This document shows positions 42,001 through 51,000 of a DNA stretch of 64,000 bases, piece after piece; the first letter of the stretch is position 1; every line of letters begins with the position of its first letter. Source of the stretch: Thermovirgaceae bacterium (lineage in GTDB: Bacteria > Synergistota > Synergistia > Synergistales > Thermovirgaceae). The stretch spans positions 61,621 through 125,620 of the forward strand of contig JAXGNU010000006.1 in the NCBI GenBank assembly GCA_040767805.1, in the 5' to 3' direction. Made by a program: the position numbers.

Positions 42001-45000
42001 GCATCAGGACCGAGCCGGGAACCTGCTTTTCGGGCCTCGGCCCAGAGAGCGTCCGGCTAAGGGTCCCGGCCCCCGGAGAGCTGGAGACTTTTGAAAGACT
42101 CTGGAAGAGGGCCTTTGAAGAATAAAGGCAACCTTGACCTGGCCCCGCGTTTGACAAGGGCAGGCCGCTGGTATAGACTCCCATAGATACTTCGTTTTTT
42201 AATAATCGATCGCCTCGGAGGGAGGGTGACCCGTGCGAAGAATGAATGACTTTTTCGGCTGCTATTTTTACGGCTATTACTTTTACTTCGCCTTGGGGTC
42301 CCCCTCCTGGCGCGGTTGAGCCGTACTCTTCCGCAACGAACCGGGAAAAAGGGACCCCTAAAAAAGGGGTCCCTTTCTTTTTTGGGGAGGTGGTGCCAGG
42401 AGAAGGCCAGGAACGAAAGCGCCGGCGGGCATTAAAGGGCCGCCCTGTAACGGGGCGGGCAGACAACCAGACACAGGAGGTGTCGAACGAAATGAGCGAC
42501 CCCGTTGTGAACCGGGGTTTCTTCAGCAAGTTCATGGGCTCTTCCTTCTACAAGAAGTTCATCCTTCCCGGCCTTATTTCCCAGTCCGTCGTCATCGCCG
42601 GGGGTTACGGCACGGGCCGTGAACTCGTCGAGTACTTCGGTAACTTCGGCAGCCTCGGCGGCATCCTGGGCATGGCGCTGGTGACCACGGTCCTGTGGGC
42701 CATCGTCTACGCCGTGAGTTTCGAATTCGCCCGGACCTTCAAGGTCTACGACTACCGCAGCTTTTTCAAGGAGCTCATCGGGCCCGGCTGGATGCTCTAC
42801 GAGGTCTGCTACATAATCCTCCTCCTCATCATCCTCGGCGTGGTCGGCGCCACTTCGGGGAGCGTCTTCAAGCAGGCCTTCGGGCTGCCGCCCCTGGTGG
42901 GGGCCGCCCTCTTCCTGGCGGGCGTCGTCACGCTGACCTTCTTCGGCAGCTACGTCATCGAGGTCGCCCTCTCGTGGTGGTCCTTTGTCCTCTACGCCGT
43001 CTTCCTGCTCTTCCTCTTGGTGGGGCTCTCCAAGGTGGGGGGACAGATAAGCGCGAACCTGGCTTCCGGGGACATCCGTGAAGGCTGGGCCCTGGGAGGG
43101 TTCAAGTACGCCTTCTACAACCTCGCTACCCTTTCGGCCGTCCTTTTCGCACTCCGCTCCATCGAGACCAGGAAGGAAGCCTTCATATCGGGGGCGATGG
43201 CGTCGATCCTAACGATCCTCCCGGGCTTCTTCCTCTACCTAGTCCTGATGGGCTTCTACCCCGGCATACTCGAGGTGGAACTGCCGACTTACACCATCCT
43301 GTCCCAGATCGCTCCCTGGCTGCTGCCGATCTTCCTGGTGGTCCTCTTCGGGACGATGATCGAGACGGCCGCCGGGTTCATCCACTCCGTCAACGAGAGG
43401 CTCAACTCTTGGATGGTGGACCGCAAGGGCAAGGAGCTCTCCAACGCCGGCCGCGGCCTTGTCGGCGGAGCGATGGCCCTCATCGGTCTCGGCGTCGCCT
43501 CCTTCGGCCTCATCGGCCTCATCGCCAGGGGCTACGGGACCATCAGCTGGGCCTTCTTCCTCTTCCACGGCGTGGCCCTCTTCACGATCGGCCTGTACAA
43601 GATGAACAAGAAGAAGCCCGGGAGCGCCGCCTGAAGCTCCGGGGAGACGCAACGGACCAGGACCCACCCAGGCCTGGAACAAAAGGAATAGCTTCGGAAG
43701 CGGCCCGGCGACCTGTCCGGGCCGTTTTCCCTTGACGCTGTCCGGTCACAAATTGTCCCCTTTCCCTTGACAAGACAGGGGCATTAGTATAGTCTTCCCA
43801 AAACGTCAAGTCTTTCATAATGCACATTTTTAAAAGGGAGGGAGACCGATGGGCGTGGAGAAGGGCTGCTTTGGCCGGCTTATGAGCATTATTATCCTCC
43901 TTTCCGCCTTGGGGTCCCCCTCCTGGCGCGGTTGAGCTGTACTCTTCCGCAGCGAACCGGGATAAGGGGACCCCAAAAGGGGTCCCCTTATTTTTTGGGG
44001 GTGATGACCAGGAAGAAGCGGGATGGCCGAGGACTGGAGTGTAGGGAGAATTGTCCTTTGTCTGGAAGGGGCAGAGGGCGAAGAAAAGGAGGGAGTACTT
44101 TTGGAGAAACGGGAGTATTACAGCAGGGATTACGATTTCGCCGAGATCGAGATTGACCCGAGGTTCCTTCAATGCCGGAAGGAGATGATCATTTCCTTCT
44201 CAACCTGGCTGGCCTTTACCGCTATTTCCATTGCGGTGGCCTATAGCCTGGGGAAAGGCCCCGTGGAAAAGTATAAGTACGTCCTGGGACTCCCGCAATG
44301 GTGGTTCGCCGTAATAGTCGTCTCCGTGGTCTTTACGTTCATCGTCATTTTCCTTTCCCTTTTCGTTTTCCAGGACATGGAACTGTCCGATACCGCCGGG
44401 ACCGGCGGGGAGAAAAAAGGGTAAAACCCTTTCCGCAGGAAGAGGTGACATGGCATGGAATGGGAGTTATCTTCAGCAACCCGTACGGTGATCCTCATAA
44501 CCTTCATCGTTTATTCGATAGCCCTTCTGGTCGTCGGTTTTTATTCAAAGCGGAGGATGGACAAGACCGCCCTGGACAAGTTCGTGGAAGAGTTCTATAC
44601 CGGCGGGCGAGGCATGGGGGCCCTGGTCATCGCCCTCATGATCGCGGCGGGGTTATGCAGCGCCGGTACTTTTCTCGGGGGCCCCGGCCTGGGGTACAGC
44701 GTAGGTTTGACGTGGGTCATGGTGCTTTTCGCCCAGAATTTTATGAATTTCTATATCCTCGGCGAGATCGGGAAAAAAGTGGGCATCGTGGCCCGCCGGA
44801 TAAACGCCCAGTCCTACCTTGATCTTTTCGTCTACCGGTACAACCACAACAAGATGGTGGGGCTGATCGGCGTCGCAGGCATCGTGATCTTCCTGGGCAG
44901 TTATGTCGTGGCGCAGTTCGTCGGCGGCGCCCGCCTCTTCGAGTCAATGACGGGACAGCCCTACTGGCTCGGGCTCACTATCTTCGCCCTGGTGGTGCTG

Positions 45001-48000: not shown

Positions 48001-51000
48001 AGTGAAATGAGAGGTCAAGAAAGGGACCGCGGGTTTTTCAGCAAAATGATGGGTTCTTCCTTCTACAAGAAGTTCATCCTTCCCGGCCTTATATCCCAGT
48101 CCGTCGTCATCGCCGGGGGTTACGGTACGGGCCGTGAACTCGTCGAGTACTTCGGCAATTTCGGCAGCCTCGGGGGCATCCTGGGCATGGCCCTGGTGAC
48201 CACGACCCTGTGGGCCGTGGTCTACGCCGCCAGCTATGAATTCGCCAGGACCTTCAAGGTTTACGACTACCGGGGATTCTTCAAGGAACTTCTCGGGCCG
48301 GGCTGGATGCTCTACGAGGTGTGTTACCTCGTGCTCCTACTTATCGTCCTCGGCGTCGTCGGGGCCGCCTCGGGAAGCATCTTCAAGCAGGCCTTCGGGC
48401 TGCCGCCCCTGGTGGGGGCCGCCCTCTTCCTGGCGGGCGTCGTCACGCTGACCTTCTTCGGCAGCTACGTCATCGAGGTCGCCCTCTCGTGGTGGTCCTT
48501 TGTCCTCTACGCCGTCTTCCTGCTCTTCCTCTTCGTGGGGCTGGCCAAGGTGGGGGGCCAGATAAGCGCGAACCTGGCTTCCGGGGACATCCGGGAAGGC
48601 TGGGCCCTGGGAGGTTTCAAGTATGCCTTTTATAACCTGGGCACCCTCCCGGCCGTACTCTTCGCCCTCAATTACATCGAGACCAGGAGAGAGGCCATCA
48701 TCTCGGGTGTATTGACGTCGGTCCTGACGATCCTCCCCGGTTTCTTCCTCTACCTGGTCCTGATGGGCTTCTACCCCGGCATACTCGAGGCGGAACTGCC
48801 CGCGTACACCATATTGTCCCAGATAGCCCCCTGGCTGCTGCCGATCTTCCTGGTGGTCCTCTTCGGGACGATGATCGAGACGGCCGTCGGCTTCATCCAC
48901 GCCGTGAACGAACGGGTCAACTCCTGGATGGTGGACCGGAGGAACACGGAACTGACCAAGGCCAACCGCGGCGTCCTCGGGGGCGTCATGGGCCTGATCG
49001 GGCTCGGCGTGGCCTCCTTCGGCCTCATCGGCCTCATTGCCAAGGGCTACGGCACCATCAGCTGGGGCTTTTTCCTGCTCCACGGGGTGGGCCTCTTCAC
49101 GATAGGCCTGTACAAGATGAGCAAAAAGGGCGGGAAGGCGTCCGCCCGATCCCGCGGCGAGGGGAGGTTGTCCGCTGATGGATTGGAGATCCCTGGCCGG
49201 GTTGACCGACAGGAATATTGAAAAAAGCTGCGCCGTCATCGAAGGTGAAGAGAGGGTGATACCCGGGGCCGTGTCGATAAAGTACTTTCCCATGGCCATC
49301 GAAAAGGCCCGGGGCTCCCTCGTCTGGGACGCCGACGGGAACAGGTACATCGACTTCCTGACCAGCGCCGCCGTCTATAACGCGGGCCACTGTCACCCCG
49401 CGGTGGTCCAGGCCGTCAAGGAGCAAGTGGAACGGCTCCAGAATTACACGATGGTCTATTTCTACAACGACCGGCCGGTCAGGCTGGCCGAACTCCTTAT
49501 CTCCACCACCCCCGGGGATGTCCCTAAAAAGGCCGTCTTCGGCTTCTCCGGGTCCGACGGCGTCGACGCCGCCATAAGGGCCGCCCGCGCTTTCACCGGG
49601 AGGAGGAAGATCCTCAGCTTCAAGGGATCCTACCACGGCATGACCACGGCCGCCCTTTCGGTGACGGGCATCGTCAGCGACGAGACCAAGAAGGACGTCT
49701 GCCTCGACCCCCACGTGATCTTCGCCGAGTATCCCGATCCCTACCGCAACTCCTGGGGGATCGACGGCTATACCGATCCCGAAGCCCTTTCGGCCAAGGC
49801 GATGGAGTCCATCGCGGAGCTCCTCGAAAAACACCGGGGCGATGTGGCGGCCGTCCTGATCGAACCCGCCCAGGGTGACGGGGGGATGATCTTCCCCCCG
49901 GGGGAATTCATGGCCAGGCTCAGGGAGGTCACGGAAGGGGAAGGGATAGTGCTCATCGACGAGGAGGTCCAGACCGGAATGGGCCGCAGCGGGCGCTGGT
50001 GGGCCATCGAACACTTCGGCGTGGTCCCCGACCTCATCGTCACCGCCAAGGCGCTGGGCGGCGGGCTCCCCATTTCCGCCGTCGTGGGCAGAGCCGAGAT
50101 CCTCGACGCCGTCCCGTCACCGCTGTTCGCCTACACCCACGCCGGCCACGCCGTCAGTTGCGCTTCGGCGGAGGCGATGATCAAGGTCGTGCGGGACGAG
50201 GGGCTCGCCGCCGCCGCCGAGGAAAAGGGGGAGGTCCTTGCCGACTGGTTCAGGTCGAGGGCCGAGCGGTATCCCTTCATCGGGGACATCCGCCAGAAGG
50301 GGCTGCTTATGGGTGTCGAGGTGGTATCGGACAGGGAAAAGAAGACACCCGACAAGGCCATGGCAATGAAGATATCCTGGGCCGCCTGGGAGAGGGGCCT
50401 CATCCTGATCACCTTCGGAAAACACGGGAACGTGGTGCGGCTGGCCCCGCCGCTCAACATCCCCGACGAACTCCTCCAGGAAGCCCTGGGGATAATGGAT
50501 GCCTCCCTCGAGGACGCGGCGTCAGGAAACGTGCCCGCAGCCATCCTGCCGCTCCTCAAGGGCTGGTAGCAACAACCCAACTCCTTCTTCTCCATGGGAA
50601 GCGGCCCGGCGACCTGCCCGGGCCGTTTTCTACCACCCCACCCCGCCGATGCCGGAGAGGAACGCTCCCAGCCCCTTCCTGTAGGCTTCGCCGGTCAGGA
50701 TGAAGCCCCCGTTGTGGTCGCCTCTTATCTCGAGGAAGTCCTTAGGGCCGGTGACCGCTTCGTAGAGCTTCTCGCCGTGGGAGAAGGGGATGATCTCGTC
50801 GTCGCGGCTGTGGACCACCAGCACCGGGCAGCGGATGCCGCCGAGGATGCTCTCCGTGGGGTACTCGCTTTTCAGGAGGCGGCGGACCGGGAAGAAGCGG
50901 GCGACTTTCTTCGCCATATCAGCGAGAGAGGTAAAACTCGACTCCAGCACCAGGGCCCCCGGAGACTTCTCCAGCGCGACCCGCGCCGCGACGGCCCCCC

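Follow-up and report, generated by a model that had tools for sequence, protein, structure and literature searches.

The cluster described herein lies in a 64,000-nucleotide stretch of DNA (the window) from a Thermovirgaceae bacterium of the anaerobic digester type, with all of its genes on the + strand, where an earlier survey of the genome had placed them. Two YkvI-family transporter genes, T1 (42492..43634) and T2 (48007..49221), bracket a middle unit of three genes, and the 3' end of T2 overlaps by 44 nt the start of a predicted PLP fold-type-I amino acid racemase of the BAR clade (49178..50569), after which come hydrolase/buk genes. The middle unit encodes a DUF997 small membrane protein (44101..44424; TTG start inferred from the G014 ortholog), its partner, a PanF-like sodium:solute symporter (SSS; 44455..45957), and a D-aminoacylase-like amidohydrolase (46011..47612). 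In archaea, too, the SSS/amidohydrolase unit shows linkage to BAR, which the survey had missed. Upstream of T1, a class I/II PLP enzyme (40974..42125) is a conserved neighbor whose membership in the module is uncertain; it is 32% identical to the gene after BAR in Thermococcus locus L069. No ORF of the Lrp/AsnC kind lies beside the cluster in the window, while Lrp/AsnC genes adjoin archaeal loci L068, L069, and L074. The T1 unit ends in a terminator-like hairpin (43700..43731; -24.7 kcal/mol) that has only 4 T and is absent from the terminator scan; it is kept after 6/6 other T1 copies compared, and a near-identical copy lies past the racemase (50601..50631).

Leader peptides and predicted attenuation

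Each unit is preceded by a promoter-like site, a 28-aa leader peptide, and a predicted attenuator terminator. Before T1, these are a sigma70-type site (TTGACA-17-TAGACT, 42151..42179; a consensus match only, in a region where the count of such sites does not exceed that of shuffles), leader L1 with Phe/Tyr control codons (FFGCYFYGYYFYF, 42233..42319), the final codons of which would form the antiterminator strand, and a 12-bp stem with a U tract (42348..42383). The middle unit follows a perfect TTGACA with a weak -10 that falls under the scan threshold (43767..43795), leader L2 with Ile/Leu and one Met codon (LMSIIILL, 43849..43935), and a second terminator (43962..43997). The T2-racemase unit follows a site found by consensus scan (TTGACA-17-TAAAGT, 47670..47698), leader L3 with Ile/Leu control codons (LINIIILL, 47751..47837), and a third terminator (47866..47900). 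The survey had quoted two leaders, and both are present, the Phe/Tyr leader upstream of the coordinate at which it began the cluster; the leader before the middle unit had been overlooked.

A start codon (GTG, ATG, or TTG; 11, 9, and 6 cases) stands exactly 57 nt before a conserved anchor in 26 of 27 distinct leaders, and no stop codon intervenes in any of the 27, pointing to a short ORF that could be translated and that conserves its start, its frame, and its control codons. In constrained folding, the modeled antiterminator is lost once the ribosome reaches the end of the control block (codon 16-18) in all three leaders, consistent with mutually exclusive antiterminator and terminator structures switched by ribosome position. 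Terminator covariation was equaled in 0 of 500 shuffles; the antiterminator pairs are conserved (97% paired), yet they show only one two-sided change. No Rfam family matches these elements. Two further leaders occur in the same genome: one rich in Ile/Leu/Val and of this family lies ahead of a LeuA-like gene, and one rich in Tyr lies ahead of the aro operon. Two relatives (G043 and G034) keep the operon behind leaders almost free of control codons.

We propose that each of the three units has its own promoter and, behind it, a transcription attenuator of the classical, ribosome-coupled kind. A shortage of the matching charged tRNA would make the ribosome stall among the control codons, no further than about codon 17-18, and the GGGUCC/GGGUUC strand at the leader's 3' end would pair with the 5' arm of the terminator, giving read-through. 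A ribosome beyond the control codons would, in the modeled geometry, break the antiterminator, and transcription would end.

Transporter and racemase families

T1 and T2 are identical at 323 of 368 positions (87.8%; 88% in the survey), and, as the survey had noted, neither matches any NCBIfam model or reaches the cut-off of a Pfam one. The name YkvI, which the survey had already used, is borne out by 24 of the 33 named proteins among 120 listed hits and by the top Atlas clusters (YkvI at 0.97-0.98). An AF2 model (pLDDT 89) matches BasC (Z 26.5, rmsd 3.4, 348 residues aligned) and ApcT (Z 26.1), with 44 chains at Z of at least 8 before a drop to 5.4, placing both proteins, by model, among LeuT-fold transporters of the APC superfamily with a 10-TM inverted-repeat fold. 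T1 is of an A212/S215 type and T2 of a G212/P215 type; in the model, these candidate pocket residues sit mid-TM6 (helix 199-223), next to the invariant Y206, Y209, and N210, and TM6 is rendered as an unbroken helix. No substrate for the YkvI family was described in the literature searched.

The racemase has its best PDB match in 9wrf (E 1.1e-173) and carries the class III aminotransferase fold domain PF00202. It scores 582 bits to BAR, 350 to ASR, 308 to ILEP, and at most 289 to GABA transaminases, and it falls under the PRK08360 cut-off of NCBIfam (450 of 608). Homology to the archaeal BAR pair, also claimed by the survey, extends to both genes: the transporter is 33% identical (117/359, E 1e-53) to the product of the gene upstream of a 9wrf-identical archaeal racemase, and the racemase is 55% identical (255/463) to the L099 protein, itself a match to 9wrf, and groups with BAR in one clade (SH-aLRT 100, in a quick tree with ASR and ILEP outside the taxon set). 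The catalytic Asp (D234) and the PLP lysine (K291) are invariant in 11 of 11 racemases and align to the motifs of ASR (K291/D234) and ILEP (K280/D222); ASR needs the corresponding residues, according to PMC6047364. We predict a BAR-clade, PLP-dependent racemase activity. According to PMC6955911, BAR is most active on Phe, Leu, Met, and Ile, with Phe the best; these substrates coincide with residues in the leaders.

Leader split, transporter change, and competing readings

At E<=0.001, a transporter match is present in 33 of 80 relatives, weak paralogs included (25 of 61 in the survey). In the set of 30 loci L001-L030, to which the own genome belongs, the racemase immediately follows the transporter in 16 (previously 16 of 28). 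Upstream DNA could be read in 25 single-copy relatives: 12 leaders are mixed, 9 are aromatic-only (Trp/Phe/Tyr), and 4 are weak or lacking; the survey's statement that single-copy leaders are mostly mixed thus holds in the clade of at least 66% identity and not overall. Within this background, T1 and T2 form sister clades (support 100/100) among mixed-leader genes, also when convergent columns are removed, and their leaders, compared with the mixed ones of single-copy sisters, have lost control codons reciprocally in spite of gene conversion, with three aromatic and four aliphatic positions splitting perfectly by copy (p=0.029 each). The tree and this reciprocal loss uphold the earlier view that a mixed leader was divided into a Phe/Tyr-only and an Ile/Leu-only leader after one duplication.

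The transporter proteins changed in step with the leader split. Of 13 T1-specific changes, which include G212A and P215S in TM6, eight match the states of a distant clade in which the leaders hold only Trp/Phe/Tyr codons and no racemase lies alongside, against a background of 14 of 58 (p 0.004-0.013, in a post hoc test on related sequences), whereas two of seven T2-specific changes do so. This parallel change of leader and protein yields testable substrates for an uncharacterized transporter family.

The cluster probably salvages D-amino acids. In the reading that we favor, and to which we give a little better than an even chance, the ancestral unit was a mixed leader with YkvI and BAR that imported hydrophobic D- (and probably also L-) amino acids, which the racemase would turn into L forms for protein synthesis, and a tandem duplication in this lineage divided the job. 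On the T2 side, the Pro215-type transporter and the racemase would have been retained behind a leader reduced to Ile/Leu codons, for the salvage of D-allo-Ile and D-Leu at Ile/Leu shortage. The DUF997-SSS-D-aminoacylase unit, captured under a third (Ile/Leu/Met) leader copy, would supply the racemase from N-acyl-D-amino acids, such that T2, racemase, and middle unit together recover D- and N-acyl-D-Ile/Leu under Ile/Leu starvation. A true ilvC was not found in four of five genomes of the genus, whereas G001 has one; the four include G000, where 80.6% completeness leaves the absence unproven. T1 would have dropped the racemase and all but the Phe/Tyr codons and would have taken on, by convergence, residues of the aromatic-leader clade; it would then import aromatic amino acids on its own, possibly the L forms (L-Phe/L-Tyr).

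The survey had read the whole cluster as one for D-amino-acid uptake, in which case T1 would take up D-Phe and D-Tyr for conversion by basal racemase from the T2 unit. That Phe is the best BAR substrate and that the racemase is 5.5 kb from T1 fit this; however, the racemase sits behind an Ile/Leu leader and beyond the T1 hairpin, in another transcription unit, so Phe/Tyr starvation would not induce it. Further, in L112, T1 leads straight to the hydrolase/buk genes, with no racemase at the locus, and the T1 residues are those of the racemase-free aromatic-leader type. Across relatives, the racemase adjoins 38 of 42 Pro215 proteins (four lack it) and 0 of 30 non-Pro215 proteins, a contrast carried by only the four independent lineages that lost Pro215. 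We consider D-import by T1 fairly unlikely, although genomes with aromatic-type transporters encode class III racemases of the Asp type at other loci, and in L135, L136, L178, and L220 a D-aminoacylase lies close to the transporter, so the chirality assigned to T1 is tentative.

Alternatively, regulation alone may have split, with both transporters sharing a broad hydrophobic specificity and their differences being neutral or due to lost racemase coupling. The copies are, after all, 88% identical with conversion tracts between them, T2 too gained two aromatic-clade states (A121 and V294), and permeases under specific leaders are often broad (PMC2494555). We nevertheless regard this as unlikely, given that the differing residues outlasted conversion tracts peculiar to each genome in G000 as well as in G004, that all 19 single-copy sisters compared have G212 and P215, and that leaders are aromatic-only in three of four non-Pro lineages where readable.

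Our favored reading also assigns the middle unit to D-amino acids, and here the amidohydrolase is a putative D-aminoacylase. Its top four PDB matches are D-aminoacylases (1m7j, E 2.5e-100), and it matches all of the HTH, GNCG, THMR, SHHK, and GSDG motifs of 1m7j, which we take to be the metal-ligand His/Cys/Asp motifs. It falls below the PRK09061 cut-off, and its relatives include non-aminoacylases (9g5m and 9kb1); the SSS exceeds the PanF cut-off (TIGR02119, 384 bits against 328), and the G014 ortholog of the unit has no such leader, as might be expected if the unit served, say, to take up and hydrolyze pantothenate and had come by its Ile/Leu leader by chance. This we find quite unlikely, since in two Thermococci loci the SSS-amidohydrolase pair stands immediately before BAR (with DUF997 in L068, without it in L067) and the amidohydrolase flanks a racemase in three archaeal loci (L076-L078). 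Finally, it is highly improbable that the racemase runs L-to-D (for cell wall, export, or fermentation) with YkvI proteins as exchangers: although the closest folds are APC exchangers (BasC), ILEP-carrying lactobacilli are reported to make D-branched-chain amino acids (PMC6053490), and more distant Asp-type racemases of relatives adjoin ortAB fermentation genes, draining L into D would be counterproductive if L-amino-acid shortage induces the system, and the archaeal ortholog serves D-to-L use (PMC13628549).

A bolder version, which we advance tentatively and think less likely true than false, would make the cluster a complete record of co-specialization of regulator and transporter: the mixed attenuator was partitioned reciprocally between the paralogs, the Phe/Tyr paralog independently re-evolved the TM3/TM6/TM8 residues of an aromatic-specific clade, Gly212/Pro215 in TM6 is what lets YkvI accept D-amino acids, and Synergistota and Pyrococcus follow the same L-Ile-starvation logic for D-amino-acid salvage through RNA and a protein repressor, respectively. 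If Gly212/Pro215 does admit D-amino acids, one could predict from the motif which bacterial and archaeal proteins import D-amino acids. YkvI is widespread, and the leaders suggest substrates for each of three subtypes and single out two residues whose exchange bears on them. The cluster would carry D-amino-acid salvage of the archaeal kind over to Synergistota that ferment amino acids in anaerobic digesters and suggests a physiological route for D-aminoacylases, from SSS uptake through deacylation to racemization. It offers a small, unusually clean case of subfunctionalization in which RNA sensor and protein are both readable residue by residue.

Comparison with known systems

Classical leader attenuators (trp, pheA, ilv, and his) combine an SD, a short ORF with runs of control codons, an overlapping antiterminator, and an intrinsic terminator, and these elements recur here. 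The mechanism of the his leader is set out in PMC9413887. Unlike in those operons, the genes behind the predicted attenuators are for transport and putative D-amino-acid salvage, the host belongs to the Synergistota, and the antiterminator strand lies within the leader ORF.

A close counterpart is the BAR cluster of Pyrococcus horikoshii (PH0137 YkvI, called a putative D-amino-acid transporter; PH0138 BAR; PH0140 DARP), a DARP cluster described in three Pyrococcus species only (PMC13628549). Both have a homologous, Pro215-type transporter directly upstream of an orthologous racemase, and L-Ile shortage, here as inferred from the leaders, would be the derepressing signal in both. In contrast to P. 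horikoshii, the transporter is duplicated, an SSS/D-aminoacylase unit is added, and predicted translated-leader attenuators replace the Lrp/FFRP repressor DARP, such that D-allo-Ile itself would not be sensed. The racemase shares the PLP fold-type-I class III architecture and Asp/Lys pair with Lactobacillus ILEP (4ysn/5ll2) and archaeal Ala/Ser racemase (ASR; 9wqz), so a bacterial racemase of this fold is not new; its scores nonetheless set it with BAR (582 bits) rather than ASR (350) or ILEP (308), and no BAR-clade bacterial racemase with YkvI and an attenuator was found in the searches made.

For the transporters, the mid-TM6 differences recall MhsT, an NSS carrier of hydrophobic amino acids in which residues of the TM6 GMG motif decide aromatic versus aliphatic uptake (bioRxiv 10.1101/2020.04.03.022970); both are LeuT-fold proteins, but YkvI lies outside the NSS family (13% structural identity), and any residue-by-residue equivalence to GMG would be tentative. 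In the B. cereus group, Leu, Phe, and Trp T-boxes on NSS in-paralogs diverged in specificity after duplication, according to PMC2494555, and there, as here, paralogous transporters stand under regulators of differing amino-acid specificity that predict the substrate. Unlike the single specifier codon of a T-box, however, the leaders described herein hold several control codons; a mixed ancestor was split reciprocally, and a convergent transporter change that parallels the split is visible.

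Cluster layout, transporter family and racemase

Six genes make up the cluster, all on the + strand: the transporter T1 (42492-43634), a middle unit of DUF997 (44101-44424), SSS symporter (44455-45957) and amidohydrolase (46011-47612) genes, the second transporter T2 (48007-49221), and a racemase, a class III PLP enzyme (49178-50569). T1 and T2 are identical at 323/368 positions. Named close homologs suggest that the organism belongs to Thermovirgaceae/Synergistota. Transporter matches occur in 33/80 relatives (E<=0.001, weak paralogs counted), and the racemase lies immediately downstream of the transporter in 16 of 30 loci (L001-L030).

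The survey's finding had assigned the transporters to YkvI without a profile hit, and the label is borne out: 24 of the 33 named proteins among 120 listed homologs are called YkvI, and the ESM Atlas agrees. Pfam and NCBIfam returned nothing for the transporter, nor did a 99-sequence transporter profile find anything among PDB sequences. Its AF2 model (pLDDT 89) has the LeuT fold, with BasC (Z 26.5) and ApcT (Z 26.1) as matches, and Foldseek concurs. Further, T1 is identical at 117/359 positions (E 1e-53) to the product of the gene immediately upstream of an archaeal racemase identical to the 9wrf chain, the broad-specificity amino-acid racemase (BAR). PH0137 likewise lies directly upstream of BAR according to passages of PMC13628549. 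A T1-type transporter was matched in only 7/97 Thermococcaceae genomes. One archaeal locus (L070:1142-4169) carries an APC-family amino acid permease after BAR instead of YkvI, which independently supports an amino-acid transport role for BAR's neighbour. Two non-Synergistota bacteria (L071, L072) have the order ilvD-YkvI-BAR-class I/II PLP enzyme, with an archaeal-type, leaderless YkvI, possibly a separate transfer.

The top PDB match of the racemase is BAR 9wrf (582 bits), followed by Ala/Ser racemase (ASR, 350), isoleucine 2-epimerase (ILEP, 308) and transaminases, and it shares 255/463 positions with the 9wrf-identical protein encoded at L099, a locus that the Thermococcaceae search yielded. 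A quick tree of 43 rows unites the Synergistota enzymes with archaeal BARs and two further bacterial proteins in a single clade (SH-aLRT 100), and a 37-45% identity group falls outside it. Asp234 and Lys291 are invariant in 11/11 aligned Synergistota proteins; transaminases typically have Glu in place of the catalytic Asp. ASR activity is abolished on loss of the matching residues, according to part of PMC6047364, and a section of PMC6955911 gives BAR relative activities of 100 for Phe, 86 for Leu, 64 for Met and 48 for Ile. Two family members (L061, L216) have a BAR-clade racemase (65%) with neither YkvI gene nor leader; in both, a D-cysteine desulfhydrase-like gene precedes it, and L061 also has divergent OrtA/PALP genes. 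A more distant clade (~40%) of Synergistota Asp-type class III racemases adjoins OrtA or OrtB-like PALP genes (L208, L211, L212, L214), preceded in some by a TRAP transporter; its members are candidates for a fold-type-I ornithine racemase.

For the middle unit, the symporter scores above the PanF cut-off, and a PanF-like function would be the rival label. Against this, DUF997, SSS (44%) and amidohydrolase (52%) genes stand immediately before BAR at a Thermococci locus (L068), an SSS-amidohydrolase pair does so at a contig-cut locus (L067), and the amidohydrolase flanks a racemase in three archaeal loci (L076-L078). The best matches of the amidohydrolase are D-aminoacylases (E 2.5e-100). Since this unit and YkvI are each BAR-linked in archaea, the window joins two BAR-partner modules. 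An Lrp/AsnC gene adjoins the cluster in L068, L069 and L074.

Several neighbouring features deserve mention. A D-cysteine desulfhydrase-like gene (38420-39409, +) and a class I/II PLP enzyme (40974-42125, +) accompany YkvI/racemase genes at numerous loci, some of them archaeal or from outside Synergistota, and are possibly further parts of the module. A Family 1 encapsulin (Linocin_M18; 39529-40329, -) has an EncFtn-like encapsulated ferritin-like cargo gene upstream (40358-40720, -). Butyrate kinase and phosphate butyryltransferase-like genes, two of each, lie beside the cluster (52112-56282, -), which agrees with fermentation of branched-chain amino acids. In close relatives, the space separating T1 from the middle unit is a hotspot for insertions (L031:4500-6200, L109, L152, L155): these comprise one unrelated 349-aa ORF, repeat-rich ORFs whose motifs resemble Sel1 repeats, and a pair that by its motifs is IS21-like.

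Predicted leader-peptide attenuators

T1, the middle unit and T2-racemase share a common start: TTGACA, an SD and a 28-codon ORF ending ALG(S/F)PSWRG, after which comes a strong hairpin that has a U tract. The control codons are Phe/Tyr before T1, Ile/Leu plus Met before the middle unit and Ile/Leu before T2. The 3' cassette has three strong copies in the whole genome, all at this cluster. A pattern search of the collected loci gave 27 distinct leaders, of which 26 have a start codon (GTG, ATG or TTG; 11, 9 and 6) exactly 57 nt upstream of a conserved anchor and the other starts one codon later; all 27 are stop-free to the anchor. When folded with a moving ribosome footprint, the antiterminator has a probability of 0.87-1.0 with the ribosome at or before codon 16-18, a switch codon that depends on the footprint assumed, and is lost beyond; in all three leaders the modelled switch-off point is the end of the control block. 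Covariation in the terminator was equalled in 0/500 shuffles, and the antiterminator is 97% paired, with only one two-sided change. The three units are predicted to be gated by leader-peptide transcription attenuators.

Mere AT-rich structure does not account for the control block: its letters vary, yet conservation of start codon, frame and length is kept. Rfam gave no match near the gathering score at the leaders, so they are neither T-boxes nor known riboswitches of that library. Other frames of the T1 leader either are Leu-rich without a start or contain a non-conserved ATG, and a 462-aa ORF running from 42246 into T1 is due to chance, its frame being interrupted by a stop in a close relative (G004). 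The numbers of promoters (3 vs 2.0) and terminators (12 vs 8.8) in the region do not stand out from those in shuffles, so that only their positions are informative. Contigs from RNA runs derive from 92-99% relatives, with pieces spanning all genes in 4/4 runs, and are uninformative on transcription or termination; an 83-nt contig that ends at the first terminator is accounted for by the three-copy repeat.

Elsewhere in the source genome, a leader of the same family, Ile/Leu/Val-rich, precedes a LeuA-like gene (C15:10554, -) and a Tyr-rich leader precedes an aro operon (C12 near 37400, -), and both serve as internal controls; apart from aroC, found in this genome, we take these gene names from sequence motifs. 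An Ile/Val/Leu-rich leader at C4:125571 (+) is not closely followed by any obvious long gene. The first genome scan for further leaders has false negatives, having missed the T1 leader. At L043 and L044 (G043, G034), SD, length and terminator are kept and transporter and racemase are intact, with Phe/Tyr/Ile codons almost absent; these leaders are candidates for decayed or differently tuned attenuators.

Partition of the leader and convergence in the transporter

The source genome, G004, G001 (across two contigs) and metagenome loci, L108 and L111 among them, carry both T1 with a Phe/Tyr leader and T2 with an Ile/Leu leader; L111 lacks the middle unit. G002, of the same genus, has a single copy with a mixed leader, and G007 has two 94%-identical fragments. 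The copies form sister clades (100/100) among mixed-leader genes. With the single-copy sister leader FIYGIILY as ancestor proxy, T1 retains 3/3 aromatic and 0/4 aliphatic positions, and the opposite holds for T2 (p=0.029 for each copy). The survey's claim that single-copy relatives mostly carry mixed leaders stood in part: across the 25 with readable upstream DNA, 12 are mixed, 9 are Trp/Phe/Tyr-only and 4 weak or without a leader. Paralog tracts lacking synonymous differences are genome-specific (~50 codons in the source genome, ~39 codons elsewhere in G004), and 3' cassettes are homogenised within genomes; the control blocks thus stayed distinct despite gene conversion. Close SSS orthologs occur in 3/80 relatives (G001, G004, G014), and the G014 middle unit is leaderless, which suggests that this unit probably acquired its leader on entering the cluster. 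Met is present in every middle-unit leader seen (the window and 5/5 others).

The transporters changed in step. Where 19 single-copy sisters are conserved, T1 carries 13 changes absent from T2, of which eight (F77, I96, I114, A212, S215, A237, S299, V324) equal the consensus of a distant clade with Trp/Phe/Tyr-only leaders, some members of which lack a readable leader; the background is 14/58 (binomial p 0.004, Fisher p 0.013, tested post hoc), and T2 matches at 2/7. Recombination from that clade as the source of these residues is unlikely, as the matches are single sites whose neighbours keep sister states (YNLATLSAV vs YNIAVTSTV). Residues 212 and 215 lie mid-TM6, next to the invariant Y206, Y209 and N210. 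In MhsT, mid-TM6 decides between aromatic and aliphatic uptake, as portions of 10.1101/2020.04.03.022970 describe, a tentative likeness by position; a profile-profile alignment of transporter and NSS, made for pocket residue mapping, had a probability of 0.3%, too low to be of use. From 84 distinct full-length homologs (partial and stop-containing matches excluded beforehand), 12 at contig edges were removed; in the remaining 72, a racemase of at least 35% identity adjoins 38/42 Pro215 proteins and 0/30 non-Pro proteins. The non-Pro state represents four independent changes on a tree with convergent columns removed, and three of these four lineages have aromatic-only leaders.

Physiological reading and comparison with known systems

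A separate hairpin, copied from or to the one after the racemase, closes T1, and in L112 T1 runs straight into the genes located behind the racemase in the window, possibly through assembly collapse. Against reading T1 purely as an importer of L-forms, aromatic-type genomes carry Asp-type racemases elsewhere, and some have a D-aminoacylase nearby. The source genome encodes aroC and has a partial PDT match. A true ilvC was not found in it (80.6% complete), nor in G002, G003 or G004; G001 has ilvC. Ile supply probably relies on uptake, which would fit an Ile/Leu-responsive salvage. The best explanation, and a marginally probable one, is that upon Ile/Leu shortage T2 would salvage D- and N-acyl-D-forms together with the racemase and the middle unit, and that T1 would top up aromatic amino acids beside the Tyr-attenuated aro operon.

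In a library that omits most subscription papers, older attenuator surveys among them, our literature search turned up neither a bacterial YkvI-BAR operon nor an attenuator on such an operon, and no described YkvI substrate. In P. horikoshii, DARP with L-Ile bound attaches to the promoter and is likely to repress PH0137-PH0138, and D-allo-Ile releases it (excerpts of PMC13628549). By comparison, the racemase-bearing copy here is predicted to read the same amino acid via tRNA charging, a leader control that, unlike DARP, cannot sense the D-form. For Synergistota, sections of PMC9413887 report HisR sites and list His leader attenuators for Firmicutes only. All parts of the system have precedents. 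The BAR cluster and leader-peptide attenuators are known, ILEP is a bacterial racemase with this fold, and a portion of PMC2494555 already describes T-boxes that changed specificity on duplicated transporters. What is notable is that a mixed leader was partitioned reciprocally, together with a matching convergent change in the transporter.
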